Positions 943 to 16,678 of a DNA stretch of 64,000 nt are shown one piece after another. Below the pieces are notes generated by a model. The model was not told where the DNA came from and did not search any database. It saw nothing but the letters and a program-made list of their open reading frames with translations. Both the position numbers and the translations under genes were made by a program. This DNA is from an uncultured Aquimarina sp. Lineage in GTDB: Bacteria > Bacteroidota > Bacteroidia > Flavobacteriales > Flavobacteriaceae. The DNA lies in the NCBI GenBank assembly GCA_947495425.1, contig CANLYR010000022.1:360-64359 (forward strand), given 5' to 3'. Position 1 is the first letter of the stretch. Each line of letters opens with the position of its first letter.

Positions 943-975
943 TGAAAAATTGACAATAATTCTGAAAAATTGACA
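943..975 (+). promoter_or_regulatory. two exact copies of TGAAAAATTGACA, 20 bp apart, upstream of the hsp20 gene
   Basis: Copies at 943-955 and 963-975. A third TTGACA lies at 905-910. All are 140-200 nt upstream of the hsp20 ATG. Confidence 0.25.
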
Positions 976-1111
976 GCACAATGTTTATTTATAAGAAAAT
1001 TTTTACAAAATGTATAGTCGATTCATTTTGGTATTTTTTTTGTTTTATTGAAGTTGAAATCAAATAAAGATTTCAAATTTGAAATTATGTTTAATTTAAA
1101 ATTTTGTAATT

Positions 1112-1588: not shown

Positions 1589-1624
1589 TTGATTTACTAA
1601 TTTTTAGATTGAAGTATATGGACG

Positions 1625-1645
1625 GGGATCGAGAAATCGATCTCC
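1625..1645 (+). terminator. possible weak terminator hairpin after hsp20
   Basis: GGGATCGA-GAAA-TCGATCTCC stem with one bulge. The downstream T tract is poor. Confidence 0.3.
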
Positions 1646-1690
1646 TCTATACTACTCTACTCATATTTATTCTCTTAAAATTCTAATCGT

Positions 1691-1951
1691 ATGCCAAGAA
1701 CGTTTAAATCTGGAGATTGGGTAAAAATTAGAGGAAAACTTACCGCTCCCAAAATGCAAGTTATTAAATAGGTCCCTAAAAAAAACAAGAAACTGGGCTT
1801 GACCTATTATGATACGTATTTAGAATGCGTTTGGTATAAAGATGGTGAACGAAAATTAGAGGTATTCCACCAAAATAAATTGATTAAAATGATAGAAACT
1901 GGTGATTTGTTCAAAACATTTTTTACAAACCCTAAATTAAGTTTAACTTAA
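1691..1951 (+). pseudogene. DUF2158/YodC-like small protein gene interrupted by an in-frame TAG at 1769-1771
   Basis: Hand translation gives MPRTFKSGDWVKIRGKLTAPKMQVIK*VPKKNKKLGLTYYDTYLECVWYKDGERKLEVFHQNKLIKM...; both halves are in one frame. The GDxVxh..g.PxMxV ... CxW...g......F pattern resembles the DUF2158 family. It is absent from the ORF track because each half is under 60 aa. Confidence 0.45.
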
Positions 1952-1959
1952 AATCTAAA

Positions 1960-2460
1960 GTGATGAAAAACTATTTTTTAGTATGTATGATTGGCGTGTT
2001 AAGTTTTGGTTGCAACGATCAAAAGAATGACGCAAAAAAAACTGAAACAAAAGAAAGTGAAGAAAATATAGTTGAACGACCTAAAGGTTCCTGGAAGGTT
2101 GATAAAGAATTTGATGACAACGGAAACTTAATCCGATATGACAGTATCTATTCTTGGTCATCAAATGGTGAATTAGATACTCTTTCTACTTTAGATAGAG
2201 ATAGTTTGTTACAATCTTTCAAATCGAGATTCTATACAAATTTTTCAAATTTTGAAGACAGAGGATTTGATGATGTTTTTTCTAAAGATTCACTTTTTAG
2301 TAATTATTACTTCAATGACGATTTTTTTGGAAGTGATTTCGGAAAGGATTTCATGGATCTCGACAAAATAACTCAACAAATGATAGCACGGCAGCAGAGA
2401 TTTTTAGAAAGATATCAGTCAGAGTTCAGTTTACAGCCTCAACCTAAAAACGAAAACTAG
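1960..2460 (+). CDS. hypothetical lipoprotein
   Basis: Signal peptide plus lipobox (LSFGC), followed by an acidic, F/D-rich mature part. The ATG at 1963 is the more likely start. Confidence 0.6.
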   Translation: MMKNYFLVCMIGVLSFGCNDQKNDAKKTETKESEENIVERPKGSWKVDKEFDDNGNLIRYDSIYSWSSNGELDTLSTLDRDSLLQSFKSRFYTNFSNFEDRGFDDVFSKDSLFSNYYFNDDFFGSDFGKDFMDLDKITQQMIARQQRFLERYQSEFSLQPQPKNEN

Positions 2461-2478
2461 ATAGTTTTCGTTTTTTTC
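2446..2478 (+). terminator. rho-independent terminator
   Basis: AAAAACGAAAAC / GTTTTCGTTTTT 12-bp stem with a 6-nt loop that runs into a T tract. It overlaps the stop codon of the lipoprotein gene. Confidence 0.6.
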
Positions 2479-2527
2479 TGAATCGGTTGTTCTTGCATTA
2501 CATGCACGATCAAAATAAGATATGGTC

Positions 2528-3100
2528 TCAATCTACTTTATTTTTAGCTATATTTTTTCGGTCACACCAATACCAGATGGCATCTTCGCTCCCAACTTCA
2601 TAGGGAGCAATTTTATCGAATTTCATTCCGATTTTTTCCATTATTCTGATCGATGCTTTATTTTCTTTCATTGCAATGGCAATTATCTTTTTTAATTTGA
2701 GTGTATCAAATCCATACGTTAAAATTGCTTCAGCAGCCTCTGTTGCGATACCAGATCCCCAATATTCGGGTAAAAATCTATACCCAAGATCAATTTCATT
2801 AAATTCTGGTAGGTATGCCAAACCCGCCCAGCCTGTAAATTGCATGCCCTGCTTTAAAATAACGGCCCACCTGCCAAACCCATACTTCTTGTAGTTGCTA
2901 ATTCTTATCCGTATTGCATTTTCTATTTCTTCAATAGATGCAACGACAGGTTCTCCGGTATACTTTTGCACTTCTGGATTAGAGTACAGCGCAAAGAGTT
3001 CCTCTTTGTCATCCAAAGTGATCTCTCTTAACCATAGTCTTTCTGTTTCTAATACGTTTTTCAATGTAATATTTGTGATGGTGTACATGATTAATTGCAT
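2528..3100 (-). CDS. GNAT family N-acetyltransferase (RimJ/RimL-like)
   Basis: LETERLWLREITLDD start typical of the RimJ/RimL group, and an acetyl-CoA-binding region (EYWGSGIATEAAEAILTYGF). The start is probably MYTITN at 3088. Confidence 0.85.
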   Translation of the reverse strand: MQLIMYTITNITLKNVLETERLWLREITLDDKEELFALYSNPEVQKYTGEPVVASIEEIENAIRIRISNYKKYGFGRWAVILKQGMQFTGWAGLAYLPEFNEIDLGYRFLPEYWGSGIATEAAEAILTYGFDTLKLKKIIAIAMKENKASIRIMEKIGMKFDKIAPYEVGSEDAIWYWCDRKNIAKNKVD

Positions 3101-3419
3101 GTCATTAGCAGCTAATTTAGGAAATACAAACCTAACAAGAAGTCTGCGATAACATTTATAAGTAAAACAATAACAGTAAGCAATACTTATATGTGAATTT
3201 TAGTTGCCATTATTTTATTTCTAAAAGAAATAGTGTCTAGCCTTTCGAATCTTCTAACCAGTTCTCTCCTATTTGTATTAATCATTTCTTTAAACCTGCA
3301 TCGAAATCATATCAACATTACGATTCTAAGAACCAGTACTTAATTAAAAGTTAAACTATTGATAGAGCACACATTGCTACAAATTTAAATGTAGTTTCAG
3401 AGTATAAATACCATATATT

Positions 3420-3623
3420 ATGTCAAAAATTCATTTATTTCGCATAAGTTTATTTTGTGGTATTGTTTCTTTACTGTTTTCCTGTTCTAATGATGAATTG
3501 GATCTTCTACAAGAGACAAATAGTATCAAAAACACAGCTATCACAAATAATTCTCCGGATCTCGACGCAGACCTACAGGCGATAGTTCTTTATTTCAAGA
3601 AATTAACACCATTACTACGCTGA
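3420..3623 (+). CDS. small hypothetical lipoprotein
   Basis: 67-aa ORF with a signal peptide and lipobox (LLFSC). It sits 1 nt before the next ORF. Confidence 0.4.
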   Translation: MSKIHLFRISLFCGIVSLLFSCSNDELDLLQETNSIKNTAITNNSPDLDADLQAIVLYFKKLTPLLR

Positions 3624-3624
3624 T

Positions 3625-4137
3625 ATGAATCTAATTTTTTCAAAAGCTCTAATGTATTTAATTCCTTTTGTTTTTATTTTAATTTCCTGTAAAAATTCCC
3701 ATAAAAAGCCTATGCATTATAAAGGAAATGACGATTTAGATACCACGGTAAGTAATAAAGGTGAAACAGCATCTAAAGAACATGTAGGCAATGATTCCGT
3801 TTCCCTTTCATTACACCCAAACACAATACACAACAATTTCGTTGATTCCTTAGCATTAAAAGTGCATAACAATACCAATGATACCATATTTTACGGTGAT
3901 CGATTTTACATTGACAAATATTCTGATCATGAATGGAAAAGTGTAAAGGCTTTCGACACCTTATTCTACAATGACATTGGTTATTATGGTTTTCCAATGA
4001 CAGAAAACGAACATCCGATAAGTTTAAATCATGTAGACTATATATTTAAAAAAGGAGCATATCGGATTCGAAAGAAAATTTCCATAAAAGGCATAAAAAC
4101 AAAAAAGACGTACTATGTCGCTTTCGAAATAAGATAA
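3625..4137 (+). CDS. hypothetical lipoprotein
   Basis: Signal peptide plus lipobox (ILISC). No family recognised. Confidence 0.5.
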   Translation: MNLIFSKALMYLIPFVFILISCKNSHKKPMHYKGNDDLDTTVSNKGETASKEHVGNDSVSLSLHPNTIHNNFVDSLALKVHNNTNDTIFYGDRFYIDKYSDHEWKSVKAFDTLFYNDIGYYGFPMTENEHPISLNHVDYIFKKGAYRIRKKISIKGIKTKKTYYVAFEIR

Positions 4138-4178
4138 TGGTAAAGATGTACTTTTCACAGGGAATTAGGCTCTGATAC

Positions 4179-4259
4179 AAATCCGTACTTCTTATAGTCA
4201 CTACTTCTTATTCGTATTGCATTTTCTATTTCTTCAATAGATGCAACGACAGGTACTCC
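4179..4259 (-). pseudogene. fragment of a GNAT paralogue (remnant)
   Basis: An ~81-bp stretch is about 89% identical by eye to 2876-2957 inside the GNAT gene, with a 42-bp perfect core at 4213-4254 = 2910-2951. The minus-strand translation is ..WGVPVVASIEEIENAIRIRSSDYKKYGFVSEPNSL*. There is no full-length ORF. Confidence 0.55.
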
Positions 4260-4409
4260 CCATTTATTACGCTTAAGCTCAATTTGATGTGGCTTAGCAT
4301 AAAATATTTTTATAGTTTGATTCCTGCAAATGCCTTTTTTTCTAGCGGAAGATTAAATCGATATCATGAATCTGTATTCAATGTATTTTAGTCAAAATTG
4401 TAATAGAAA

Positions 4410-5693
4410 CTAAACAATGCCTAACACAGATGATAATGCAGATGCTAAACCTAAAAAACTTAAAAACCCACAAATATCTGTTACTGTAGTCAAGATAATT
4501 GAAGATGATGTTGCCGGGTCTTGTCCAATAGCTTTTAAACCAATTGGGATAACAGCACCAGAAAATCCGGCAATAACCATTGAAAGTATCATAGAGATCC
4601 CTATAACCACAGCAATACCTATTGAGTCTGCCCAGAAAAAAACGACTATCCCTGTAGTAATTGCCACTGCTACCCCATTAATAAAGCCTACCATAAGTTC
4701 TTTTTTGGCAACACGTAACCATTGCCCTATCCTGATTTCTTTTAAGGCCAAGCCTCGAATAGTAACAGCCAATGCTTGAGAACCTGTATTACCTGATTGA
4801 CCAGCAACAACCGGTAGAAATATAGCTAAAATCGTAATTTTTGCAATGGTATCTTCAAAAAAACCGACAACCATTGAAGCCAGAAAAGCGGTAACTAAGT
4901 TAATTTGAAGCCAAGGCAAACGTTTGCGTACCGCAAATGATGTTTTAGAAAGTGCATGCTCTTCCTTTCCTGCACCAAACATCGTTTGCAAATCACCACT
5001 TGCTTCTTCCCGAGAAACCGATAAGACCATATCGTTCCTTATAATACCGAGCAAATGGTTGTGTATATCAACCACCGGAATTTGTAAAAGAGAGTGGGCC
5101 TCGATACTATTTAGAATTTCTTCTCTAGTAGCCATCGACTGTACGCTATGCGCTTGATACATAAGCACCCCCATCTGTTCATCAGGTTTGGCAATTGCGA
5201 TATAATTTACAGGAACTCTACCAACAAGTTTTTGTTCTTCATCTATGATGTAAACGGTTATGATTCTTTTATCGCCCAGTTTACGTAGTTTTGTGAGTAT
5301 CGTTTCAACGGTGTTGTCTTTGGTACCAGTTAGTACATTGGTTTCCATAAGAAATCCCGCTGTATTTTCATCGTAATCCAAGAAGTCTTTAATTTCCCGT
5401 GATATAATTTTAGGAAGAAGTTCGAGTTTTATATCTACGGAATTTCGGTTCAATCTTGAAAGAATTCTTGCTGCCTTATGCGTATCCGCTTTTGAGAAAA
5501 TTTTTTTAAATAAATCATCACTCATCATCGGGAAAACATCAATGATAACATGCGTAGAAAATTCAAAAAACACGTTCTGAGCATTTTCTTTAGTCGCTGT
5601 ATCTAGAAATGATATTATCTCGTCATGACTCGTATCTTCCAAGCTAGAGGCAATCTCTTTTGAAGTTTGTATAGAAAATTTATTATTCAACAT
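4410..5693 (-). CDS. mgtE: magnesium transporter MgtE
   Basis: N-domain, tandem CBS region (VYIIDEEQKLVGRVP, IPVVDIHNHLLGIIRNDMV) and a C-terminal 5-TM domain with the TTVTDICGFLSFLGLA motif. Confidence 0.9.
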   Translation of the reverse strand: MLNNKFSIQTSKEIASSLEDTSHDEIISFLDTATKENAQNVFFEFSTHVIIDVFPMMSDDLFKKIFSKADTHKAARILSRLNRNSVDIKLELLPKIISREIKDFLDYDENTAGFLMETNVLTGTKDNTVETILTKLRKLGDKRIITVYIIDEEQKLVGRVPVNYIAIAKPDEQMGVLMYQAHSVQSMATREEILNSIEAHSLLQIPVVDIHNHLLGIIRNDMVLSVSREEASGDLQTMFGAGKEEHALSKTSFAVRKRLPWLQINLVTAFLASMVVGFFEDTIAKITILAIFLPVVAGQSGNTGSQALAVTIRGLALKEIRIGQWLRVAKKELMVGFINGVAVAITTGIVVFFWADSIGIAVVIGISMILSMVIAGFSGAVIPIGLKAIGQDPATSSSIILTTVTDICGFLSFLGLASALSSVLGIV

Positions 5694-5695
5694 AC

Positions 5696-6247
5696 CTATG
5701 AAGTTTCTTGATTAATGGTCGTAAGACTGTTCTCCTTTTCAGCCGTAAATGAATTGATTTTACGAATGGTTTTGATTATAAAAACATTGTTGGGTAAGGT
5801 TATTTCGTCGTCTGAGTCTGCCAATTTAATTTTAGTGAAAAATAATCCAATATTTATCACCTCTCCTCTTATCTCATAATCTTTGGTTTCCATCATTGAG
5901 ATCGTATCTCCAATTTTTACAGAATGACCAAAAAATATAATGATGCTTGACGTAATATTGGATAAAAGCGACCATTGTGCAAAGAATGCCACACCAACAA
6001 TCGTTAATATAGACCCTATAAAAACAGCCAATTCCGATTGTTTTACACCCCATATGACCATCAGTAAAACCAGACTTATCAATAGTAGAATAAAGTTGAT
6101 CGCTCTTCTGATAAGCTGTGTTCTGGATTTTTGAACCACCTTATCTATTATCGATTTACTAATAAGTTGATTTAGCACTATTCTGATAATTATGAATAGC
6201 GCAAGAACGACAATTGATTCTATAATTTTAGAGTAGTATATTTCCAT
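5696..6247 (-). CDS. small MscS-family mechanosensitive channel-like protein
   Basis: Three TM helices, then an MscS beta-domain-like segment (VKIGDTISMMETKDYEIRGEVINIGLFFTKIKLADSDDEITLPNNVF). Ends 3 nt before the mgtE start. Confidence 0.7.
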   Translation of the reverse strand: MEIYYSKIIESIVVLALFIIIRIVLNQLISKSIIDKVVQKSRTQLIRRAINFILLLISLVLLMVIWGVKQSELAVFIGSILTIVGVAFFAQWSLLSNITSSIIIFFGHSVKIGDTISMMETKDYEIRGEVINIGLFFTKIKLADSDDEITLPNNVFIIKTIRKINSFTAEKENSLTTINQETS

Positions 6248-6531
6248 ACAGCTTATTTTTCATTATTTTGATTGGAAGGTCTAATTACAGTAAATTATTT
6301 TACATCTCAATCATAAATTTTAATTTTTAGCGCTATGCTTTTTAACTTGTGTACATCGCCAAATAGGCGAGCATACCTAAACCAATCGATGTATCCCTGA
6401 ATCGCTGGCAGGCAGGTGCGCATTTTTATTTCTTGATCAATTTATAAAAATCTGGCGTTACTGCAAAAGGAAATGATCTTTTGATTTTGCACTAAACTTT
6501 GCTCTGATTTCATAGGATGTTATGCACTGAA

Positions 6532-7404
6532 CTATTCATACTTTTTTTTAAATTGTCCACTTAAATGTAAATGATCTGTATATAGAGTTCCTCTTAAATA
6601 GTTAATTTCATTGTCAATTTTTGAAAAATCTGTTTTATTTCCAACTTCTTCTTTAAGGAAATCCATACAAAATCCAACTCCATCAGTTATATGAAATAAA
6701 GCTATGAACATATTACCAAATACATCGTTGATGTCTGAATTCGCGTAAATAATTGAGGCTGTTCCAAAATGGTCATATTTGGAATAAATATCATAAAGTG
6801 TAAATACAGTCAAATAATCAATTCCTTGAGTGTATTTAGCAAATTGGTCTAGCCTCTTTCTTATAGTAGCAGGATTAATATCATCTTTTCTTTTATAGAT
6901 TAGAGATTCCGAAGGTTTACTATAATTTAAAAGCTTGTTTTTATCAAAAAACTTGTTAAAATTAGTATAGATAACATTAACAAATTCGCAAAACTTTTCA
7001 TGGTCGTAACCTAAAGTCTGTTTATCTTTTTCGGAAACTGTCAATAGTCTTCTTACTTGTTCAGATAATAACTTATCATACTCTTTATCATAACTTGTTT
7101 TTTCGTTTTTAACTCCTGCCCTTTTTTCAACATAAAAGGTCCTTAGATATAAAATAGTTAAGTAGTCTAAAAGGCTTGATCTTAAAATTATTGCAATAGA
7201 ATATGAACGAAAGGCGTTTTCCTTATCAAGCCCTTCCACGAGAATGTTGATAGATTCAAAACAACTAATATATCTATTAAAAAGATTTTCATAAACATTG
7301 AAAGTTCTATGGTTTTCTTTAGCAATTTTTAAACCATCTTCCAAAATAACTTTAAGATGAATCTTCATTTTAAAAAGTTTATTTTGATTTAATTCTGAAA
7401 GCAT
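6532..7404 (-). CDS. hypothetical all-helical protein (possible HEPN-like R-x6-H near the C terminus)
   Basis: 290-aa ORF with no TM segments. It has the C-terminal motif YLRGTLYTDHLH. No family confidently recognised. Confidence 0.5.
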   Translation of the reverse strand: MLSELNQNKLFKMKIHLKVILEDGLKIAKENHRTFNVYENLFNRYISCFESINILVEGLDKENAFRSYSIAIILRSSLLDYLTILYLRTFYVEKRAGVKNEKTSYDKEYDKLLSEQVRRLLTVSEKDKQTLGYDHEKFCEFVNVIYTNFNKFFDKNKLLNYSKPSESLIYKRKDDINPATIRKRLDQFAKYTQGIDYLTVFTLYDIYSKYDHFGTASIIYANSDINDVFGNMFIALFHITDGVGFCMDFLKEEVGNKTDFSKIDNEINYLRGTLYTDHLHLSGQFKKKYE

Positions 7405-7558
7405 TGTTTAAAAAATTAATATTTGTGTATAGAGTCTTTTTAACTTTGTGTATGACGGTTTGGCTATGCGCAGTGTCCCGAAGTGCATTACGTATAGACG
7501 TTGTTGCGCGTTCGTGCTTTCATTTCTTTTTAATTTTCCATGTTCTCCTGTTCGATGG

Positions 7559-8131
7559 CTATAATCCATTTACCTTAAATATTAAGACACATAGTGCTTT
7601 ATCAAATCTGTGATAGATTTTCTCTTCTTCTTTCTTGTCGAGAATTGTGTACCTAAAGTCTTTTTTCTGAAAGTCACCTCCTGTTACCATTTTACGATAT
7701 TGAAAACGACAACTCTTTATCTCCTCAAAATCATCTTTGAACTTATTCTTTCCGCAATGATAAGATAGAGTAACAATTGTATCAAGTTCGTTAGAGATTG
7801 TTGTGAATAGACTTATAAGTTGGTAGGTATTTGCAGAAGAAACGGTTTGTTTTTGAACACACTCAGCAACGGTATGATTTACAGTTTGAATTGTTCCTTG
7901 CAAGGCCTCAATTTTTCGAATAATCACATCTTTCTCACTTCTCTTGTTATGCATATTTCGTTCAAGAAAAATCGGGATATAGACCGCAAGGAAGATTGTT
8001 ACAACCAAAGTTGCCAAACCAACGACATCAATTTTGTCTTCAAATGAAAAGAGGGGGTAATAATGCTGCAATCCCATTCCGATTACAACACCTACAAGTA
8101 CCAATATGACTCCAATAATGTAACGCATCAT
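7559..8131 (-). CDS. hypothetical membrane protein with two N-terminal TM helices and a cytoplasmic helical domain
   Basis: TM1 is IIGVILVLVGVVIGMGL and TM2 is VGLATLVVTIFLAVYIPIFL. Its start overlaps the upstream stop in ATGA (8128-8131). Confidence 0.6.
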   Translation of the reverse strand: MMRYIIGVILVLVGVVIGMGLQHYYPLFSFEDKIDVVGLATLVVTIFLAVYIPIFLERNMHNKRSEKDVIIRKIEALQGTIQTVNHTVAECVQKQTVSSANTYQLISLFTTISNELDTIVTLSYHCGKNKFKDDFEEIKSCRFQYRKMVTGGDFQKKDFRYTILDKKEEEKIYHRFDKALCVLIFKVNGL

Positions 8132-8460
8132 TTGTCATTGGCTTCTCTAATGTATTCAATGATGTCTTCTTCAAGGAATGGATCGTCATCTGATTTGAAA
8201 TCCAAGTTGTCCAAAACGATTTTTGATTCCTTGTACTCTCTTGTAAGACCACCAAAAGCTGCTTCCAAAAATGAAGTAGCATAGCCAGCTGTCCCATCAA
8301 GGTCTATGAACAATTTTTTCTTTTTCGAAAGAGCTTGCTTGAATTTTGGCAGAAGAATCCTTTCCAAAAACTCTTCGCCTGGGAAATCGCCTTCGATTTC
8401 CTCACGTACACCAGGAATGGTGGTGTAGTCGTCTGCTATTTTAATAATTAACTTGTCCAT
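8128..8460 (-). CDS. STAS-like (DUF4325-like) domain protein
   Basis: KLFIDLDGTAGYATSFLEAAFGGL matches the h-h-D-h-x-G-h..h.SSFh-E-hF core of STAS-like DUF4325 proteins. The ATG at 8460 is preferred over the TTG at 8484 used in the track. Confidence 0.7.
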   Translation of the reverse strand: MDKLIIKIADDYTTIPGVREEIEGDFPGEEFLERILLPKFKQALSKKKKLFIDLDGTAGYATSFLEAAFGGLTREYKESKIVLDNLDFKSDDDPFLEEDIIEYIREANDK

Positions 8461-9476
8461 CTGTTTGTATTGTTTAGTTCCCAATAAAGAAAGGTTCCAC
8501 TAAATTCTTTTGATAATCTTTCATATTTGTCTGTGCTCAAATCAGCCTTTACATCATTTGAAATGATTTTAAGGTTGCTGTAGTAATTGCGTTCAAGACC
8601 TTTGTATATGTTCGGTAATCCCTTACCTCTATACGGGATTTTGGTACTTGACATTTTTCGACCGCTTATTATTTCTTTAAGAACCTCACGGTTATCAGTT
8701 ATTCCAAAGAATGATTTCAAATTATCTCGGAAACCACTCATTTTAGATGACTTGAAAATACCAACTCCCATATCAATAAAGGCAAAGGAAACCTTATTTA
8801 AAGCTTTATCATGGTAAACGGTCAGCCACCATGTCTCATGACCAATTTGAGTTGGTTTAGCATGGTAACAAGTGTTTGCCATACTTTCCATTAAAGCTCG
8901 GTAAACACCTGGACATCTTGCTTCCTGACCAAATACAATTTTGGTTGCTCTTTTAATCATTTCATTGGCAATACCACCTTCAGCCTTTTTGTTTTGTCTT
9001 GTCAGAATGTAGTTCTTGTGTTCGTTATCTGTGCCATTCGCACCAAATACACCGCTTTCCTGAAAAATCTTTCTAAGTTCATCATCTTTGGGATAATTGC
9101 CTTTGATTGGCACACCTTTAGTAATTGCTGGATTCTTAACTACTGCAAGCAGCAAGACAATCGCGTCATTGGTAAGATGGGTAATCTCTTTAAGGTTGAT
9201 TAATATCGGTTTTCTATGTTTTATTTTGTTTATAATCAGTTCCAAATAAGATAAAATGGCCACAGTGTTTTCTACAAACGAAAAATTGGACGGAGCAGGT
9301 AAGCTCTCAAACTGGCTGATTAAGCTTCGTTCGCGTTGTTCTTCTATTGGGACGCCATCAATTGTCCCTCTTTTTTTCTTGACCTTTTCTTTACTCGATA
9401 GCCGCTGCTTCAAACGGTCTTTCGCTTGCTTAGTATTGCGTTTTTTATATTCAGCTGTTGTGTAAAGTTTCTTCAT
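8448..9476 (-). CDS. GHKL (histidine-kinase-like/anti-sigma-kinase-like) ATPase with an N-terminal STAS-like segment
   Basis: Bergerat-fold boxes: N box ESMANTCYHA, G1 FIDMGVGIF, G2 YRGKGLPNIY. The N-terminal region ILINLKEITHLTNDAIVLLLAVV resembles a STAS core. The extreme N terminus is Lys-rich. Confidence 0.75.
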   Translation of the reverse strand: MKKLYTTAEYKKRNTKQAKDRLKQRLSSKEKVKKKRGTIDGVPIEEQRERSLISQFESLPAPSNFSFVENTVAILSYLELIINKIKHRKPILINLKEITHLTNDAIVLLLAVVKNPAITKGVPIKGNYPKDDELRKIFQESGVFGANGTDNEHKNYILTRQNKKAEGGIANEMIKRATKIVFGQEARCPGVYRALMESMANTCYHAKPTQIGHETWWLTVYHDKALNKVSFAFIDMGVGIFKSSKMSGFRDNLKSFFGITDNREVLKEIISGRKMSSTKIPYRGKGLPNIYKGLERNYYSNLKIISNDVKADLSTDKYERLSKEFSGTFLYWELNNTNRWTS

Positions 9477-9880
9477 TTAAATTTCACTTCTGGTCTATTT
9501 TCAGTTTGTGCTTTTTGCATGACGCACAACAATTTCGTATGCATGAAAACACACATACACCCAATTATACGTATTTACAAACACTTAAAATTGCTTTTAC
9601 AACAATACGCAAAAAATAGCCTTGGTCTACTGTGGGAATCCGTAAGGAGGTTGCGTTATTTATTCGTATATAACCAAACGATACGCTGCAAACTATAAAC
9701 AGACTACTTCGTCGTCTGTACCCTGAGCCATTTGACACAGATTTCCTTACTCCATAGTCCGTTTTAGACGAATCACACATTTTTTTCGCAAAAAAACCCC
9801 AGTTCCGGAAGATGAAACTACTATTTCCTAATCTTGCTTTTAATTTTAAACAATAACCTTTTTTTAAAAACAAATCGATT

Positions 9881-10582
9881 ATGTCTAAAGACAATTTTGA
9901 GCAAATGCTCCCGCTATTTGATGCCATGCCAGACCACAAGGTAAAAACACCTAACATACCCGTAGATACGATCCTGCAAGAGGTAGAAGATCTATTTGTA
10001 TGGGCGACCCAGGATAAAACTACCCTGGTCGATAACTCAGGATTAGATTGGGAACACTACGCGAAGGAGTTGCCTGCACGTGCCGGAGCATTGCGGCACG
10101 CGCAATCCATTTGGGTTAGCGAACGCTATGGGCAAGAAGAAGCCAATAAAACCTGGAAAGAAGTATCACCAGCAGCATACGGGCTTAGAGACGACCTGCT
10201 TGATGATTTTAGGTATGCTTATCGCAAACGTACCGATCTGCTAAGCCGAGTGCGCGAGATCAGTAATGGTAGTGGCAATGCCGATATGATACAAGACCTA
10301 AGTGATCTAAGTGTATTGGGTAAAAGTAATCTCGAACCCTTGCTGGTTTCAAAATTCGACCCTGCCAAACTAGAGGAAGCGGCTACCTTATCTAATGATA
10401 TGGCAGAACTGCTGGCCAGAGCCAACGGTGCGACCTTAGAAAACTCTTCGGCCAAACTGGTACGTGATAAAGCTTTTATGCATGTAAAAGAAGCATTAGA
10501 CGAGGTGCGCGATGCCGGTAAATATGTGTTCAAAAATCAACCCGAACGCTATCAAGGCTACATAAGCAGGTATAGAAAGTAA
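9881..10582 (+). CDS. hypothetical helical protein on a GC-richer segment
   Basis: 233-aa ORF with coherent coding-like composition and no TM segments. It is visibly more G+C-rich than its neighbours. No family recognised. Confidence 0.6.
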   Translation: MSKDNFEQMLPLFDAMPDHKVKTPNIPVDTILQEVEDLFVWATQDKTTLVDNSGLDWEHYAKELPARAGALRHAQSIWVSERYGQEEANKTWKEVSPAAYGLRDDLLDDFRYAYRKRTDLLSRVREISNGSGNADMIQDLSDLSVLGKSNLEPLLVSKFDPAKLEEAATLSNDMAELLARANGATLENSSAKLVRDKAFMHVKEALDEVRDAGKYVFKNQPERYQGYISRYRK

Positions 10583-10600
10583 CCAACCCGCACTATTAAT

Positions 10601-10875
10601 GATCCCCGCAGTGGTTTGCCTCTTCCCCGCGCATAGTTGAACGCTCCCCGTGGGTGTTTTAGGCTTCCTCGCGGTAGGTTGATGCTTCCCCGTAGTGCTT
10701 TTCTATTTCCCCGCGCCATAATGATGCGTCCCTGTCGCGGGGAAACTTATTTTGGGTGCGGGGATTCACTATTTGTATGCGAGGAAGGTTAGCGCAACTA
10801 CGGGGAGAGGTGTATATCCCACCGGGGAAGCTGAATAACAACCGGGGAAGACCTACAACCGCTCTGGGAAGCTAA
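10601..10875. repeat. mirror-symmetric array: 7 x CTTCCCCG-type cores, then 7 x CGGGGAAG-type cores, at 21-bp phasing
   Basis: The G of CCCCG falls at 10608, 10629, 10650, 10671, 10692, 10713 and 10734. The C of CGGGG falls at 10738, 10759, 10780, 10801, 10823, 10843 and 10864. The symmetry centre is about 10736. Mirrored cores are complementary in register; the spacers are not. Confidence 0.85.
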
Positions 10876-10905
10876 GTATATGCCAGGTGAGGCTCAAATG
10901 AATAC

Positions 10906-11445
10906 TTAGGTGCATGTAACCCAAAGTAACAAACCTAAAATCAGTAGTAATACAACTATGCCACAGCCCGCTGCTTCGCGACTAATCTCTTCATTTTCTT
11001 TATCTTGTTTCGCTTTCCATCGTTTTGCGACTTTTCTATCTTGTTCATCATATTTTGCTTTAAGATCAGTATCAAAACCAGACACATACTCCTCGAACTT
11101 CTTGAATCCTTCATAAATTTTATATTTGTCATCGCTCGCAGCGCTTAACTGGATGTTCAAAAAAGAATCCAATACCGGATATCCACTTTTTTTACGAAGC
11201 TTGGTAAACATGTTATCGCGCGTATCGTCTAGCACAACAACAGTCTGAAAAATGGTATCAATTTTTAAAAAACTAAGAACTAGTTGTACTTTTTCTAGAG
11301 CACTGCTATCCAAATTGGTAGCAGTATCGTAATTGTATGACAATACATGCGAAACTGCTTCGTCTAGTACATTCTTGGTTTCATAAGGTTCTTGAAACGT
11401 ATATTTCTCCACCTTGTATTCATGTACTTTTTCAAGAGGTTCCAT
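10906..11445 (-). CDS. hypothetical C-terminally anchored membrane protein
   Basis: 179-aa ORF with one C-terminal TM helix (GIVVLLLILGLLLWV) preceded by a charged K/E/D-rich helix. Confidence 0.55.
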   Translation of the reverse strand: MEPLEKVHEYKVEKYTFQEPYETKNVLDEAVSHVLSYNYDTATNLDSSALEKVQLVLSFLKIDTIFQTVVVLDDTRDNMFTKLRKKSGYPVLDSFLNIQLSAASDDKYKIYEGFKKFEEYVSGFDTDLKAKYDEQDRKVAKRWKAKQDKENEEISREAAGCGIVVLLLILGLLLWVTCT

Positions 11446-11533
11446 AGATCACGATTTTTAATTGTGGACAACTTACAAAATAAATGACTAAGCTTTGAGA
11501 AGTTACCTTACTCAAAAATACGAAACTAAAAAA

Positions 11534-11558
11534 ACCGCCTAAACATAGTTTAGACGGT
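11534..11558 (-). terminator. rho-independent terminator downstream of the T9SS beta-helix gene
   Basis: ACCGCCTAAAC / GTTTAGACGGT stem (one mismatch, 3-nt loop), followed on the minus strand by a 6-7 nt T run (A run at 11528-11533 on plus). Confidence 0.55.
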
Positions 11559-11793
11559 CTCACTTCTGTGTAATAATCCAAGCTATTCTTTACATGAATT
11601 CTTCATATAAAGAGGGTTAAAAAACAGCTTGTGGGTTTATTTATTTTAAAATCGTGATTTAGACTTTTTCCTATCCACTCTAGATGTTTGCGGATCTTTA
11701 TCAAAGCATGCTTTTCACTCAATTTTATCATTTTCTTACTCGGTAGCACCGCTAGGAAATGTAAAAGCACTGTAAATGATCAAAAAGCTTACA

Positions 11794-14394
11794 TCACTTT
11801 AAGATTAACCTTTTACTAGTGGTATATGTTTCGGTTTCAATTTTTAAGAAATACACTCCTTTACCATAAAGGTCTACAGGAAAGTTGATATCATTTTTAG
11901 AATCAAATTGCTTTTGCATAACCAATCTACCGCTAATGCTGTATAAACGTATAGTAACAGATTCATCTGTGTTTATACTATTTTCAAATACTATATGCAC
12001 TCGTTTATCTTTTGGTGGATTAGCAGCAAGAATGGCTTGCTCCTCTTTTGATATATCTAAATCAAGAGATTTAAATACTCTGGCATTTGTTTGGTTATTT
12101 TTGTAAAGACTACCAACTAAATCTCCTGTAGCTCCAAAAACAGCATACCCGATTTTTTCGCTTGTATGGTAGGTTTCGGTTTCTAAGGATTGTTCTTCTT
12201 GTCCATATACCTTGATCGCATTAGGTGTAAAACTACTGGGTTGGTTACTAACGCCTTTTTTGAAACGTGATTCCATCGGATCACCGCCATTTTTAGTTTG
12301 TATATTGGCAAAAAATACGCTGTTTGTATTTGGGTAATTAAGCTCAAAATTTATAGCAAACCATTTTTTGTCGATATATGTATTTCTAGTTCTATCTACT
12401 TCAAATAACGAAGTTCCAGAATTATCAGACACTCCTTTTTCTATCGCGATCCAATGTAATTTTTCTGTAACATGATTTCTATTCCCATCTTGGGTACCAC
12501 CGTTTTCTTCTTCTAGCAGTTGTGCTCTAAAACTTAGAGACGATACATCTTTGATATGTGTGCTTACTGCCTGAGCTTCATTTTCTGATACAATTTGATT
12601 GAAAACAACCGGTTTGCTTAAAAATTCTGTATCAAAATTGATTGAAGAGAATGTTGTATTCACATTTGATGCACCAGCTTCCACTACACTTCCATTAGCA
12701 AGTGTATACGTTCCTGCTTCTACCACCATATAATGAACTTCTTCTGTAGCATGGTTTTGATCCAGGTATTCCCATTCGTCTACTCGCCACTCAAAAGAAG
12801 TTGTAGTAATATTTCTTAATCTTACGGTTGCAGCATCTTCTTCATAAAATGAAAGTGGTCCCGTAATTACTATAGGATTGGTATAGGTGTTTTTAAAATA
12901 TACTTTCTTCCACTTTTGATTTGCAGTAGAGCGACCTAGTTCTCCTATAATTTTATTATCCAATATGGGTCCTGGTACTCCTGTAAATATAAAGGCTCCA
13001 ATATCGGGATTAGCCGTGTTAAAAGGAGCAAATCCTGTGTTTATACCTGCATCAATTGCTGGGCTATCAGATCGTAATTGTAGCTCATGAATCGGAAAAT
13101 TATTGTTTTTTGTCGGCTCTCTCACCAAAGCCGATCCTTGTGTAGTATCCCAAGAGGCAGAAGCAAAAAGATTGGTTTGATCCTGGGTTAATGGCGTAGC
13201 ATCTACAAACCTAGGATTCATGATAAAATCTTTTTCTGGAACTCCTGCCGGATTCCCTGTGGTGTTCCAGTGGATGTTGTTCTCAAAGACTATCGTGCTT
13301 TCATCGTTAGAAAATCGGCTGATGGTAGAAATAAGATCATCTCCACGAATCAGCAAGTTATTCGCAATATAGGCGTTTGCAGATCCCCCAACTTGTATAG
13401 GTTGATGTGCTCCACCTAAAGGGATCTCCTGATTAGGAACTCTTTTTGAATGCCCATTATCATATAATGTATTATGTATTACATCTACATTTTCAGTCTG
13501 AAAAACATTAACTCCGGCACCACCATTTCCGTAAGACACATTTCCGATAATTAAAGATTTACCACTGTAAGGTTTTGGGTCTGTACCTTGCATATGTTTA
13601 AAATCGTCTACAATAATCCCGTTTCCATCTGTAATTTTATAGCTAAACTCTGATGATCCTCTGAGTTGCACATTGTATCTACTAATATTATTTTTAATAA
13701 TGATGCGATGATTAGGGTACTCAGGGAAATTCTTTGCATTCTGATCGGTCATTTGCCAAAATCCTATACCGCTTGACCCAGCGGTAGAACTCCATGCATT
13801 GTGTTCTACGATATTGTTTTCAACAAGTACCACATCGGCCTCTGTACCGCCTATACCTGCTCCAGGAAAATCATGCACGTAGCAGTTACGCACAATAATA
13901 TTATGGGAATTTCCTATAACACCTATACCACCGCGGGATTGCCATGCCCATTCGCCAATTTCTTGTTTGAGGCCTTTATAGTCAATATCTAATGCGATGA
14001 CTTCCAGATTTTCAACAATGACATACTTCTTTGTTTGTAATGTAATTCCTGTTAAAGAAGAAGAATAAATTTTTGGTCTGTTCCCATTTGCATCAAGGAC
14101 ACCACTAATGGTAATATAAGCACCCTCTCTTCCAGAATTAGGAACATAGAGTTCGTTATACGCATTGGATCCTCCCAGATCCCGGTACTCGCCAGGCAGA
14201 ATTTTTAGAGTATCCCCTGCTCTTGTTTTGCCTGCACCCTTCACTACAGAACGTAAAGGTGTATTTGCCGAGAGACCATTATTCTGATCGCTACCATTGG
14301 CTTCGTCTACATAATATGTAGTCTGTGCAGACAAAAAAAATAAATTTGAACAGACGAGGATTAAAAAATAAAATGATTTTGTGTTCATAATCAA
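11794..14394 (-). CDS. secreted right-handed beta-helix (pectate-lyase-fold) protein with a T9SS C-terminal sorting domain
   Basis: Signal peptide; repeated N-h-h-h-x-N beta-helix rungs (VRNCYVHD, VENNIVEHN, IIKNNISRYN, HNTLYDNG); C-terminal Por-secretion-tail-like region (IRLYSISGRLVMQKQF...GVYFLKIETETYTTSKRLILK). Confidence 0.8.
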   Translation of the reverse strand: MIMNTKSFYFLILVCSNLFFLSAQTTYYVDEANGSDQNNGLSANTPLRSVVKGAGKTRAGDTLKILPGEYRDLGGSNAYNELYVPNSGREGAYITISGVLDANGNRPKIYSSSLTGITLQTKKYVIVENLEVIALDIDYKGLKQEIGEWAWQSRGGIGVIGNSHNIIVRNCYVHDFPGAGIGGTEADVVLVENNIVEHNAWSSTAGSSGIGFWQMTDQNAKNFPEYPNHRIIIKNNISRYNVQLRGSSEFSYKITDGNGIIVDDFKHMQGTDPKPYSGKSLIIGNVSYGNGGAGVNVFQTENVDVIHNTLYDNGHSKRVPNQEIPLGGAHQPIQVGGSANAYIANNLLIRGDDLISTISRFSNDESTIVFENNIHWNTTGNPAGVPEKDFIMNPRFVDATPLTQDQTNLFASASWDTTQGSALVREPTKNNNFPIHELQLRSDSPAIDAGINTGFAPFNTANPDIGAFIFTGVPGPILDNKIIGELGRSTANQKWKKVYFKNTYTNPIVITGPLSFYEEDAATVRLRNITTTSFEWRVDEWEYLDQNHATEEVHYMVVEAGTYTLANGSVVEAGASNVNTTFSSINFDTEFLSKPVVFNQIVSENEAQAVSTHIKDVSSLSFRAQLLEEENGGTQDGNRNHVTEKLHWIAIEKGVSDNSGTSLFEVDRTRNTYIDKKWFAINFELNYPNTNSVFFANIQTKNGGDPMESRFKKGVSNQPSSFTPNAIKVYGQEEQSLETETYHTSEKIGYAVFGATGDLVGSLYKNNQTNARVFKSLDLDISKEEQAILAANPPKDKRVHIVFENSINTDESVTIRLYSISGRLVMQKQFDSKNDINFPVDLYGKGVYFLKIETETYTTSKRLILK

Positions 14395-14580
14395 TTTTCT
14401 AGTTAAAAATAAATAGTGTTATTTAATATTTATAATGCAAAACTAGAACGAAAATCTGTAGAGAATCTGTAGCCTTTTTCCAGAAACATCATAAGTCTGG
14501 ATTTCCTATAAAAAGTTGCCTTGTACCCTAAATTCGATATAAAGTTTTCGATACTCAGTCTTATATAGTCTAAAGGAGTT

Positions 14581-14600
14581 CCTTCTCCTTGGGGAGAGGG
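14581..14600. repeat. GC-rich REP-like hairpin
   Basis: CCTTCTCC-TTGG-GGAGAGGG. Confidence 0.6.
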
Positions 14601-14665
14601 TTAGCCTGCCTGTCGACTCTCCCAGAGCACTACCGTATGTACACAAATAAGTTAAGTTTTTTACA

Positions 14666-14693
14666 TTCCTTCCCCGCCACGGCGGGGAAGGAA
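14666..14693. repeat. GC-rich REP-like hairpin (perfect 13-nt arms)
   Basis: TTCCTTCCCCGCC-AC-GGCGGGGAAGGAA. Confidence 0.8.
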
Positions 14694-14823
14694 CTTTGAC
14701 TAGTTTTTATTCTCATTATTTGCAATACAGTTGTGTAAGAGGATAATAAAAAAAATCGAGTTTGTTTTTAAAAACTACTGCTCTTGTTAGGTGAGAGTTA
14801 ATACTCCCTCCCCTGTGGGAGAG
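14684..14823. repeat. ~140-bp direct repeat, copy 1
   Basis: GGGGAAGGAACTTTGACTAGTTTT..GTTAGGTGAGAGTTAAT..CTGTGGGAGAG. Near-identical to 15048-15185, with a handful of substitutions or indels by eye. Confidence 0.85.
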
Positions 14824-14862
14824 CTACCATGCGTACTCAAATAAGTTAAGCTTTTTTATGTT

Positions 14863-14903
14863 CCTTCCCCTGGCAGGGGAAGGTGTCCCGCCCATAGCGG
14901 GAC
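14863..14903. repeat. two adjacent GC-rich REP-like hairpins
   Basis: CCTTCCCC-TGGCA-GGGGAAGG (14863-14883) and GTCCCGC-CCATA-GCGGGAC (14885-14903). Confidence 0.75.
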
Positions 14904-15034
14904 GGTAGGGGTTGATATTTCAAAATACAAAGAGGTAGATGCTATAATACTACCGTTTAATTCTATAGTTTTAAAAGGCCAAAAGTGATAATAATGCGTG
15001 TATGCATCCCTTCCGAATTGACGATGTCAATCCA

Positions 15035-15055
15035 CCTTCCCCTACCAGGGGAAGG
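15035..15055. repeat. GC-rich REP-like hairpin
   Basis: CCTTCCCC-TACCA-GGGGAAGG. It forms the left border of repeat copy 2. Confidence 0.75.
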
Positions 15056-15185
15056 AACTTTGACTAGTTTTATTCTCATTATTTGCAATACAGTTGTGTA
15101 AGAGGATAATAAAAAATTCGGGTTTGTTTTTAAAAACTAATGCTCTTGTTAGGTGAGAGTTAATGCTCCCTTTCCTGTGGGAAAG
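15048..15185. repeat. ~140-bp direct repeat, copy 2
   Basis: See copy 1. It ends in the hairpin CCTTTCC-TGT-GGGAAAGG. Confidence 0.85.
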
Positions 15186-15233
15186 GATTGGAGTGAGGTC
15201 GTTTACTATAATTTATAATCAGAGTATAAAAAA

Positions 15234-15257
15234 AGAGGCTGGATTGCTCCAGCCTCT
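15234..15257 (-). terminator. rho-independent terminator of the S8 peptidase gene
   Basis: AGAGGCTGG / CCAGCCTCT 9-bp stem with a 6-nt loop, followed on the minus strand by a T run (A run 15228-33 on plus). Lies about 35 nt after the stop. Confidence 0.7.
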
Positions 15258-15291
15258 ACTATAATAAGGAAATAAGATAAGATTATATATT

Positions 15292-16515
15292 TTAGTTTAA
15301 GGTAGCTATAGGAGCTGTATATCCTCCTTTTCTTACAGATCCATCTGTTCCTGTACGGTTACCTCTTATCAATAATATTCCTGCCACGTGTGGTGATGCC
15401 ATAGACGTACCAGAAATTTTATTAAACTGGCCATTTAACCAAGTAGACCATACTTGAGTACCTGGAGCCCAACGATCTACACTTCTCCCAAAGCTTGAGC
15501 TATTTGCAGGAGCATCTACATTAGTCATATTACCAACACACCAAGTTCTGCTAGTTCGTAATCGTTGTGGTGAATAAAATTGTGTATCATCATTACTGTT
15601 TCCTGCTGCCATGGCCCCATAAGCTCTAGCTTGTAAATTTCTAAATGCATTATCAATAGCCTGAGAAGTAGCTCGAGTACGAGATCCTATACTGTAGTTC
15701 CATGTATCGCCATTACTTGCATTATTAGCTACATAGTCTACTCCTGCAAGAATACCTGAATTGCTACCACTCCCTTGAGCGTTTAATACTCTAACAGAAA
15801 CTACAGTTGCACCGTAAGCAACACCAATAACTCCCGAGCCATTGTTTTTTGCGGCAACAGTTCCTGCCACATGAGTTCCATGTCCGTTTTGATCTTGCCA
15901 AGAACCACCAACAAAACTTCTACTTTTACTCGTATTAATATTGAGGTCACGATGCGGAGCTATACCACTATCTAGTATCCAACAAGTTCTACCATTACCA
16001 TCTGCTCTACCTACTCGGTTGATACCCCAAGGCAAAAATTCTCCATTGCTAAGTTGTGAATCATTCGTTGTCGCTTTGTTTAATACTGTTGCAGGAAGCG
16101 AACTTACAGGTTTCCCCATATTGATATCCAGACTTTGAATATAGTTCGGTTCTATATATGCAATTTCAGTATCATTTCTAAGCATATCTGCTTGTTCTTC
16201 AGTTAGATTTTTAACTGCAAACCCTTGAATCACGTTACTATACGTCTGCTTTATATTGCTCTTTGCAATAGCATGTTTTGCTAGCGTTTGCTGAGATTTT
16301 GCCTCCATCTTTGCAATGTTCCCAGACAGAGACTTACTCTCGTTATAAATTACGATGTACTCTCCTGGCACAGCCTGATCTGCACCTATATTACTTGAAG
16401 TTTCTACTTCTATTCCAGTTTCTATGTCCGTAACTTCATCTACATCTTTCTCACAACTATAAAAGAGAAAAGAAAGAACTGTTATTACGCTTAAAATCCT
16501 AAGTTGAGCATTCAT
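15292..16515 (-). CDS. S8 (subtilisin) family serine peptidase with an N-terminal propeptide; lipoprotein/secreted
   Basis: Catalytic triad contexts WILDSGI (Asp), HGTHVAGTVAA (His) and SGTSMASPHVAG (Ser). Signal peptide with LFYSC. I9-like propeptide region (YIVIYNES...VIQGFAVKNLTEEQADMLRNDTEIAYIEPN). Confidence 0.9.
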   Translation of the reverse strand: MNAQLRILSVITVLSFLFYSCEKDVDEVTDIETGIEVETSSNIGADQAVPGEYIVIYNESKSLSGNIAKMEAKSQQTLAKHAIAKSNIKQTYSNVIQGFAVKNLTEEQADMLRNDTEIAYIEPNYIQSLDINMGKPVSSLPATVLNKATTNDSQLSNGEFLPWGINRVGRADGNGRTCWILDSGIAPHRDLNINTSKSRSFVGGSWQDQNGHGTHVAGTVAAKNNGSGVIGVAYGATVVSVRVLNAQGSGSNSGILAGVDYVANNASNGDTWNYSIGSRTRATSQAIDNAFRNLQARAYGAMAAGNSNDDTQFYSPQRLRTSRTWCVGNMTNVDAPANSSSFGRSVDRWAPGTQVWSTWLNGQFNKISGTSMASPHVAGILLIRGNRTGTDGSVRKGGYTAPIATLN

Positions 16516-16678
16516 TTTATTTGATTTATGTGTTAAACAATTGATTTAAGTTAAATTATTGAGATCTCATAACTTTAATTATTTAAAAGTATGGATTAAT
16601 CCCAATATCCAAATACGGTAAAAACACATAAAACAAAGGGTTACACTTAATTCACTTGTCGTTGAATTAGAAAAAACA

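Follow-up and report, generated by a model that had tools for sequence, protein, structure and literature searches.

To our knowledge, partner switching between a GHKL kinase and a STAS-domain protein was long known only in the control of sigma factors. Work published in 2026 has brought such a pair into phage defence, where it gates a PIN toxin in one system and a repressor in another (Chambers et al., EMBO J 2026; PMC13373217). In the first of these, VapKSC, encoded by a three-gene operon and protective against phage Bas42, the kinase VapK (STAS-GHKL, approximately 296 aa) phosphorylates VapS on S48, and VapS, a STAS protein of 116 aa whose C-terminal region is short, holds the PIN toxin VapC until it has been phosphorylated by VapK (PMC13373217). 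In the second, CapK (helix-turn-helix, HTH, then STAS and GHKL) phosphorylates the repressor CapS (STAS, then winged HTH, wHTH) upon binding single-stranded DNA (ssDNA); approximately 20% of the CapK/CapS are found just downstream of restriction-modification (RM) systems, and CapKS precede variable immune operons (PMC13373217). Here we describe a locus suggesting that a membrane effector may be gated in a similar way. It occupies positions 7559-9476 of a stretch of 64,000 nucleotides from an uncultured Aquimarina species (Flavobacteriaceae; GenBank assembly GCA_947495425.1, contig CANLYR010000022.1, positions 360 to 64,359 of the forward strand), the whole of which is called the window below. 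The three genes of the locus, designated A, B and C, and the region ahead of them are as follows.

8448-9476, minus strand: gene A, 342 aa, with a polybasic helix, a STAS-like domain and a SpoIIAB-type GHKL domain, VapK-like
8128-8460, minus strand: gene B, 110 aa from its ATG, VapS-like, a STAS protein of the Pfam family DUF4325 whose C-terminal helix is acidic
7559-8131, minus strand: gene C, 190 aa, a membrane protein with two transmembrane (TM) helices, the presumed effector
9477-9880, minus strand: intergenic region 5' of A, 404 nt, the presumed promoter site

A first-pass annotation, made from the letters of the window, had described three overlapping open reading frames (ORFs) on the minus strand, and the DNA, read directly, bears this out in sizes as well as in overlaps. 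A and B share 13 nt (8448-8460), the last codons of A running over the ATG of B, and B and C share the ATGA at 8128-8131, which holds the TGA of B and the ATG of C. An in-frame TTG at 8484 is an alternative start for B, giving 118 aa; the ATG is preferred by homologue alignments.

The three genes constitute one co-inherited, overlapping operon, carried by mobile DNA and present in defence-island contexts. A profile of the A family, searched against 1.84 billion representatives with the matches counted as 50%-identity clusters, gave 4,206 clusters at E<=1e-3 and 1,341 at E<=1e-30. When one genome was scanned for each GTDB species, 183 proved to encode a relative, and the loci of 80 of these were examined. 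Synteny in other genomes had been set beforehand as the test of the unit, and the A-B-C trio turned out to be intact in 75 of the 80 loci, a B-sized ORF overlapping or abutting A and being followed by a C-like ORF; the other five end at a contig end or have disrupted ORFs. In the intact loci, the median sizes are 361 aa for A, 114 aa for the B-sized ORF and 201 aa for the C-like ORF, the latter possessing one to three N-terminal TM helices, exactly two in 68 loci out of 75, and the fourth gene, the one after C, varies from locus to locus. The 80 loci are spread over Bacteroidota, Gamma- and Betaproteobacteria, Verrucomicrobiota, Acidobacteriota, Nitrospirota, Fibrobacterota, Cloacimonadota and Patescibacteria (candidate phyla radiation, CPR), with one metagenome-assembled genome of Woesearchaeota among them. 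Among the matches listed, the homologues with a source name are all called 'hypothetical protein', none with a precomputed Pfam domain; the RefSeq label of a copy on a Leptospira plasmid is 'ATP-binding protein'.

As to linkage with defence genes, also proposed at the outset, RM families are the commonest upstream neighbours in 72 loci (136 genes, one or two positions upstream). In summary counts, they are represented by Eco57I (9), N6_Mtase (8), ResIII (6), Methylase_S (6) and HsdM_N (4) in Pfam, and by Specificity_I (8), MTase_I (7) and REase_MTase_IIG (7) in PADLOC, with HerA, caspase-like proteins and transposases as other upstream neighbours. Downstream, ResIII, RhuM, integrases, Fic, methylases and Schlafen-like proteins are found, mixed with housekeeping genes. 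One example is presented by Bacteroides coprosuis, in which a type II BsuBI/PstI RM system is followed by the trio; another is a 4-Mb genome (locus L004), in which hsdR-hsdM-hsdS are followed directly by A-B-C. The mobile carriers include an integrative mobilisable element, on which an 86%-identical copy is accompanied by an integrase, relaxase/MobC and a VapE-like primase, a serine-recombinase element, a plasmid of Leptospira interrogans, on which the trio sits beside an MNT/HepT toxin-antitoxin (TA) pair, Marinobacter phage AS1, in which it sits beside the Cro/CI region, and a Helicobacter prophage; the C-like proteins of the latter two have one N-terminal TM helix each. In the Francisella prophage KIRK, the interval from cI to the integrase holds genes for a 293-aa protein, a DUF4325 protein and a TM protein (PMC7924643). 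No sigma factor or PP2C phosphatase family is present among the 25 commonest Pfam families within two genes on either side in the 72 loci, nor is there one among the 20 ORFs scanned in the window from 1 to 26 kb, and to this extent the first-pass statement that the window has neither holds.

Locus L004, where the trio lies in a dense island, deserves a few words of its own. Its positions 1-7994, upstream of the trio, encode a Pkinase-AAA fusion protein, DUF6804 and the type I RM system, and positions 9911-17035, downstream, hold several ORFs without annotation, including ones of 123, 523 and 213 aa, along with a group II intron reverse transcriptase. The unannotated genes may be defence candidates.

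Gene A is divided as follows.

9309-9476, minus strand: residues 1-56, Lys/Arg-rich N-terminal extension, with a long helix (8-36) in the model
9039-9308, minus strand: residues 57-146, STAS-like beta-alpha domain
8451-9014, minus strand: residues 155-342, GHKL (Bergerat-fold) kinase domain, an alpha/beta sandwich
8874-8888, 8760-8774 and 8619-8630, minus strand: nucleotide-binding boxes, in this order the N box (E197/N201), G1 (D235-G239) and G2 (R283-G286), with G3 at G327-T328

The motifs that had been read from A, namely ESMANTCYHA (E197-A206), DMGVGIF (from D235), RGKGLPNIY (from R283) and ILINLKEITHLTNDAIVLLL, are all there, and the claim of a complete Bergerat fold of the SpoIIAB/RsbW-like type is upheld by conservation and by structure. 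N201, D235, G237, G239 and G286 are invariant in 250 of 250 homologues, and E197 (247/250), G327 (249/250) and T328 (246/250) are nearly so. For an AlphaFold2 (AF2) model built from 32 homologues, with a predicted local distance difference test (pLDDT) score of 84.9 and a predicted TM-score (pTM) of 0.78, the top PDB matches in Foldseek are the SpoIIAB structures 1til, 1tid, 1th8 and 1l0o (probability 1.0, target-normalised TM-score 0.64-0.71), followed by Topo VI-B, WalK and mycobacterial anti-sigma-F kinases. Pfam, NCBIfam and PADLOC gave zero matches to A, no usable PDB match was obtained by sequence or profile, and only PHROG 3364, of unassigned function, matches it (E 6e-36). The GHKL assignment thus comes from the conserved motifs, from the structural match and from a comparison of profile with profile (see below). 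Judged from its motifs and model, A belongs to the small anti-sigma-kinase (SpoIIAB/VapK) type of GHKL protein, is catalytically intact and is a predicted Ser/Thr kinase.

Ahead of the kinase core, the Lys-rich segment that had been noted in the single sequence proves to be a family trait: a polybasic N-terminus is kept across the 250 homologues, with a median length of 55 aa, a net charge of +16 and a K+R content of 36%. This part of A has no HTH match, and we infer that the polybasic helix is a candidate sensor or nucleic-acid-binding arm. The domain between the helix and the kinase is modelled with the order E57-60, H71-86, E91-94, H103-113, E124-126, H132-141 (E, strand; H, helix). By hhalign, residues 83-150 of A pair with the region of VapK named STAS by Chambers et al. 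(PMC13373217), whereas the comparison with the DUF4325 family is not significant (E 0.0077, probability 5%), and Foldseek gave a weak match to a phage DUF4325 protein (target-normalised TM-score 0.51, E 0.73). The domain is called STAS-like on the alignment to VapK, the order of secondary-structure elements and the one weak Foldseek match. This part of the original claim survives, but the candidate Thr acceptors proposed within the same domain do not: the T102 position is occupied by T, D, S and G in 143, 44, 30 and 9 of the 250 homologues, respectively, and N103 is variable. With the acceptor-equivalent position unconserved, the STAS-like domain of A is probably not phosphorylatable.

A Trp-Trp pair lies just past the N box, at about 8826-8831 (W216 in 246/250 and W217 in 231/250 homologues), and hhalign places no Trp pair opposite it in the VapK family. 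These residues may contribute to a site, peculiar to the family, for a ligand or a partner.

The assignment of B is more direct, and a single site in it is of special interest.

8272-8277, minus strand: codons of T62-S63 of B, two adjacent hydroxyl residues where STAS helix alpha-2 begins, candidate phospho-acceptor

The core motif KLFIDLDGTAGYATSFLEAAFGGL, from which B had been recognised as a DUF4325 STAS protein of about 110 aa, is found in it, and the family, Pfam DUF4325 (PF14213, 'STAS-like'), is its sole above-threshold Pfam match (E 1e-10, 41.6 bits versus a 23-bit cut-off), shared by 34 of 35 members of the B family. S63 is conserved in 81 of 81 homologues, and the position of T62 is T in 66, S in 13 and R in 2, i.e., T or S in 79 of 81; other invariants in the same 81 are R19, G24, G28, G59, F69, G70 and L72. 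The dyad follows the 'DLDG' strand, at the start of alpha-2, where STAS proteins have their phospho-serine. The conserved candidates for a phospho-acceptor are T62 and S63 of B. B is a STAS protein of the VapS type (DUF4325) whose canonical acceptor site holds an invariant Ser, and it is, by analogy, the presumed kinase substrate and effector antagonist.

PHROG 5816, a phage profile of 441 positions, is matched by B (8128-8484) over positions 336-439 (E 3.7e-9), which suggests that in some phages a DUF4325 domain forms the C-terminal part of a larger protein, possibly one in which kinase and STAS parts are fused.

The comparison with the 2026 systems was made with the VapK, VapS, CapK and CapS sequences of Appendix Table S2 in Chambers et al. 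By hhalign, the A family matches the VapK family with a probability of 96.8% (E 2.1e-10) over 243 columns, covering both domains (A residues 83-335), and the GHKL motifs of A pair one-to-one with those of VapK and CapK. Compared with VapK or CapK as single sequences, the A family gives weak matches (E 0.008 and 0.0009, respectively; probability 5-24%). The relationship is distant, and as identity between A and VapK is only about 19%, the two are considered as separate families. On the side of the STAS partner, VapS belongs to the same Pfam family as B (E 2.7e-17), and its chain 9z7o_A is the top PDB match of a B-family profile built without VapS, at a borderline E of 0.057. VapS S48 stands opposite B T62 in the hidden Markov model alignment, and in the printed CapS sequence, as we read it, S54-F55 matches B S63-F64.

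The likeness to VapKSC thus extends from gene order, kinase then STAS protein then third gene, to the homologous STAS and GHKL parts of the kinase, to the STAS partners, both DUF4325, of 116 and 110 aa, with a conserved Ser/Thr at the same site and a short C-terminal helix, and to genomic position: a genuine VapKSC locus (L094), hsdR-hsdM-hsdS-VapK-VapS-PIN-Fic-GmrSD, has its three genes in the same slot and order, directly after a type I RM operon, as L004 has the trio. The differences are three. The third gene of VapKSC encodes a PIN-domain nuclease, VapC, whereas C is a helical protein with two TM helices and no PIN match; A has an extra polybasic N-terminal helix of about 55 aa that is absent from VapK; and the Phe through which VapK is predicted to contact ssDNA at the STAS/GHKL interface, F54 (numbering checked in the authors' AlphaFold 3 file), is not conserved in the A family, standing opposite A H100, at a position where N (70), T (29), E (28) and Q (20) are the commonest of 250. 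From these alignments, the trio is a distant sister of VapKSC in which the PIN toxin appears to be replaced by a membrane protein. Retention of a sensor pair along with a swap of the third gene is the usual behaviour of effectors in modular defence systems.

CapK and CapS resemble A and B in the STAS and GHKL parts of the kinase, with aligned motifs, in a STAS partner phosphorylated on a Ser just before a Phe, and in a frequent position after RM systems. One could propose on these grounds that A and B, CapK/CapS-like, are transcriptional controllers of neighbouring immune genes, either the adjacent RM genes or those downstream, a proposal to which we return below. Here it suffices to note that the repressor CapS ends in a wHTH, which B lacks, that CapK begins with an HTH where A has its polybasic helix, and that the immune operon after CapKS is variable, while the gene after A-B is always C.

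The features of C were read from an AF2 model made from closer homologues (pLDDT 78.4).

8060-8128, minus strand: TM1, residues 2-24, a hydrophobic helix in the AF2 model
7958-8026, minus strand: TM2, residues 36-58 in the AF2 model, running on as a long helix to residue 94
7565-7957, minus strand: cytoplasmic four-helix bundle, residues 59-189 in the AF2 model
7682-7684, minus strand: T150, a nearly invariant Thr at the end of helix 5, next to a low-confidence loop

The model is all-helical, TM1 being followed by a short loop, by TM2 and the long helix continuous with it, and by three more helices, which make up a four-helix bundle; the two N-terminal TM helices and the helical cytoplasmic domain of the original description are thereby confirmed. 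Basic residues (K+R) are enriched after TM2 and not in the loop between the TM helices, and TM1 has a GxxxG in 47 of 71 homologues, and for these two reasons an N-in/C-in topology with helix-helix packing fits the family. C is thus modelled as a small inner-membrane protein with two TM helices, N-in/C-in, and a cytoplasmic four-helix bundle. The family is hypervariable, with a mean column identity of 23%. Foldseek returned only generic helical bundles (best E 0.05), and no Pfam or PADLOC family recurs across 33 homologues.

Two candidate identities for C have been rejected as chance matches. One is HlyE/ClyA, of the alpha-pore-forming toxins, which was matched in Pfam at E 1.9e-4 and 21.3 bits, below the 25-bit cut-off, by the window protein only (1 of 33); the profile of the C family against PDB gave HlyE at E 0.08-0.3 amid coiled-coil noise, and Foldseek lent it no support. 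The other is the PADLOC family PDC-M14B (E 1.4e-3), matched by the window protein and by none of the 32 other homologues. As to T150, a loose pattern search finds its motif, 'h-h-T-(G/x)-(G/T)', in 58 of 76 homologues; the residue may cap a helix, be phosphorylated as a second site or make contact with B.

Taken together, these data are best accommodated, with a probability of roughly 0.55, if the trio is a toxin-antitoxin or abortive-infection system in which phosphorylation gates a membrane effector, a reading that leans on analogy with VapKSC. In the resting cell, B would bind the cytoplasmic domain of C and keep C inactive. A cue from infection or stress, perhaps read by the conserved polybasic helix of A, would activate A, which would phosphorylate B on T62 or S63, and phospho-B would release C. 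Free C would then oligomerise through the GxxxG of TM1 and damage or depolarise the membrane, and growth would be halted ahead of phage release, as abortive infection or as growth arrest. The switch is probably one-way, since no phosphatase is found among the commonest neighbours. That the polybasic helix may be the sensing element of A is speculation, prompted by the conservation of the helix and by the absence of the Phe that stacks on ssDNA in VapK. The idea that the output is the third protein and not a sigma factor, already present in the first-pass annotation, agrees by analogy with the logic of VapKSC, in which the STAS protein holds a toxin until phosphorylated (PMC13373217). That the trio would be a partner-switching-type defence module without a sigma factor, with the membrane protein as its output, we regard as well supported, if not proven, by the sequence comparisons.

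A number of points weigh on the other side. The toxicity of C, the binding of B to C and the phosphorylation of B by A are all carried over by analogy from VapKSC, and a pore or depolarising role for C is one that we infer by analogy only; C matches no pore-former or effector family, and for a small TM protein the part of an anchor or sensor is equally possible. With the VapK F54 equivalent variable in the A family, the trigger of VapKSC is not transferable to the trio. PADLOC v2.0.0 does not include the trio, A and B having no match in it at E<=1 and C only scattered, one-off, sub-threshold ones, and the trio thus comes without a prior defence annotation. The neighbour enrichment consists of summary counts with no matched genomic background behind them, and in the window itself no RM gene or integrase is adjacent to the trio and no recognisable defence genes are beside it.

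The first alternative takes up the point on C. C would serve in the membrane as an anchor or a sensor, by which the kinase is localised or activated, for example in superinfection exclusion (Sie) by prophages or in the sensing of injection, with some other target, of host or phage, and with B as a regulator. C is small, with no enzymatic or pore-former signature, its more distant versions have a single N-terminal TM anchor, and the phage copies occupy the immunity/moron region, where Sie-type membrane proteins are common; the polybasic helix of A could, moreover, bind anionic membrane lipid. Such an arrangement would leave the module without an evident effector, however, and in VapKSC, the only relative to have been characterised, it is the third gene that supplies the toxin, with the STAS protein as antagonist. 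The invariant acceptor Ser of B also argues that B is the kinase substrate. The hypervariability of the cytoplasmic domain of C (23%) is usual for conflict effectors, yet it would equally fit a sensor facing phage proteins. On balance, we find an anchor or sensor unlikely, at something like one chance in six in our estimation.

The mobile carriers raise a different possibility, that of a selfish addiction module, stabilising its carrier elements by post-segregational killing, with no dedicated role against phage. The presence of the trio on plasmids, integrative elements and prophages, and beside TA pairs such as MNT/HepT and RelE/HigA, is what such a module would predict. Addiction normally relies on instability of the antitoxin, however, and release gated by a kinase would have no obvious purpose in it, while the predominance of RM genes upstream and the protection from phage by the sister system favour defence. 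The two roles are not exclusive, but addiction as the whole explanation appears improbable.

Less probable still is the transcriptional control introduced above with CapK-CapS. It does draw on an architecture homologous to CapK/CapS, approximately 20% of which are just downstream of RM systems, and on the many trio loci that follow RM genes. Against it, B is only 110 aa in length and has no wHTH or other DNA-binding domain, A has no equivalent of the CapK HTH, and the gene that is always next is C, genes beyond C being variable. Finally, a housekeeping partner-switching stress pathway, for example in ion homeostasis, is suggested by the MscS-like and MgtE genes that the trio adjoins in the window, but it is hardly credible, as MscS/MgtE do not recur among the commonest downstream neighbour families elsewhere, neither does a sigma factor or a phosphatase among the commonest neighbour families, and the distribution of the trio is patchy across phyla and on mobile DNA.

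Returning to the gated membrane effector, two groups of known systems put it into perspective. The anti-sigma pairs SpoIIAB-SpoIIAA and RsbW-RsbV are the nearest in terms of the kinase fold, SpoIIAB providing the closest solved structures to the kinase domain of A, with N, G1, G2 and G3 boxes intact, and they too act on a STAS-type substrate with a Ser at the N-terminus of alpha-2. They differ from the trio in that the latter has no linked sigma factor or PP2C (SpoIIE/RsbU-type) in the scans made, in that the kinase of A is fused to its own STAS-like domain and basic tail, and in that the presumed output is a membrane protein, the loci being mobile and horizontally spread. In abortive-infection systems with membrane effectors (the TM effectors of CBASS, Pycsar and Panoptes, and systems of the RexAB type), sensing in the cytoplasm leads to the release of a small TM protein and, through it, to collapse of the membrane. 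The same logic is proposed for the trio; these systems have no homology to it, however, and its signal would be protein phosphorylation rather than a nucleotide messenger.

As to novelty, the first-pass annotation had spoken of an undescribed system. This is no longer so for the kinase-STAS logic, which was published in 2026 together with the sister system, but no description of the version with a membrane protein was found. In Chambers et al., the word 'transmembrane' does not occur, and 'membrane' is used only for membrane-disrupting compounds and for blotting membranes (PMC13373217). No description of a kinase-STAS-membrane trio was found in the literature on DUF4325/PF14213, on STAS domains in defence or abortive infection, or on VapK/CapK; beyond Chambers et al., three incidental mentions of DUF4325 were all that was found. 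A wider proposition, that the trio represents a large, unnamed family of anti-phage abortive-infection systems, in which phosphorylation of a STAS antitoxin frees a membrane-disrupting effector upon a trigger other than ssDNA, perceived via the polybasic helix, is advanced here tentatively, as somewhat short of an even chance. If it were true that membrane effectors are gated in this way, the kinase-STAS pair would become a general, effector-swapping sensor module of bacterial immunity. Confirmation would bring a new defence family and a second, independent effector with which to dissect release by STAS phosphorylation, would make it possible to put a name to thousands of gene trios that lack annotation, and would raise the question of what is sensed by A, the ssDNA-contact residue of VapK being missing from it.

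The presumed promoter region, 9477-9880, contains no module ORF in the ORF list. Scans of the operon flanks for promoters, terminators, sigma-70-type motifs and the Bacteroidota -7 motif were all at or below chance level, the number of terminator-like sites being likewise not above chance. An imperfect 10-pair hairpin (TGTATGTGTGTTTTCATGCATACG) is present at 9536-9559 on the minus strand, within the 404-nt leader and approximately 60 nt 5' of the start codon of A.

In the window, the trio is part of an ORFan patch of approximately 5.5 kb (6.25-11.8 kb), with MscS/MgtE on one side and a beta-helix protein secreted by the type IX secretion system on the other, and with housekeeping genes beyond. 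One further gene in this patch had been named as a possible contributor to the output.

6532-7404, minus strand: gene D, a 290-aa ORFan, GC content 27-29%, the 'HEPN-like orphan' of the first-pass annotation

Gene D has no match in Pfam, PADLOC, PHROGs or PDB and only weak, sub-threshold ones in NCBIfam; it holds a single RGTLYTDH string, at residue 271, and no homologue was found in 88 related loci. With no profile match and no link to the trio elsewhere, the HEPN reading is rejected, and gene D is outside the A-B-C module.

On the other side of the trio, a segment at 9881-10900 had been singled out for its odd composition, and this holds for most of it, GC content being 47-49% across 10001-11000, versus about 27-38% in the flanks. 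No Rfam family and no tRNA was found in the window from 1 to 20 kb. A 233-aa ORF at 9881-10582 (plus strand), in the high-GC segment, has a weak NCBIfam match to 'PQLLE family protein' (E 4e-4, 20 bits versus an 80-bit cut-off) and no homologue in the related loci, and is probably a separately acquired gene. A 179-aa ORF at 10906-11445 (minus strand), for which only weak matches of a coiled-coil type and no homologue in the related loci were found, has a hydrophobic end resembling a C-terminal TM helix (GCGIVVLLLILGLLLWVTCT). Between these two ORFs, within the GC-rich stretch, is a repeat array (10603-10716 and 10779-10807) that was not scored by Tandem Repeats Finder. It has four copies with a period of approximately 21 nt, each starting with TCCCCG(C/T), at start-to-start spacings of 42, 21 and 21 nt, and an inverted copy approximately 110 nt downstream; the array could represent iterons, an element resembling repetitive extragenic palindromes (REP), or a remnant of foreign DNA.

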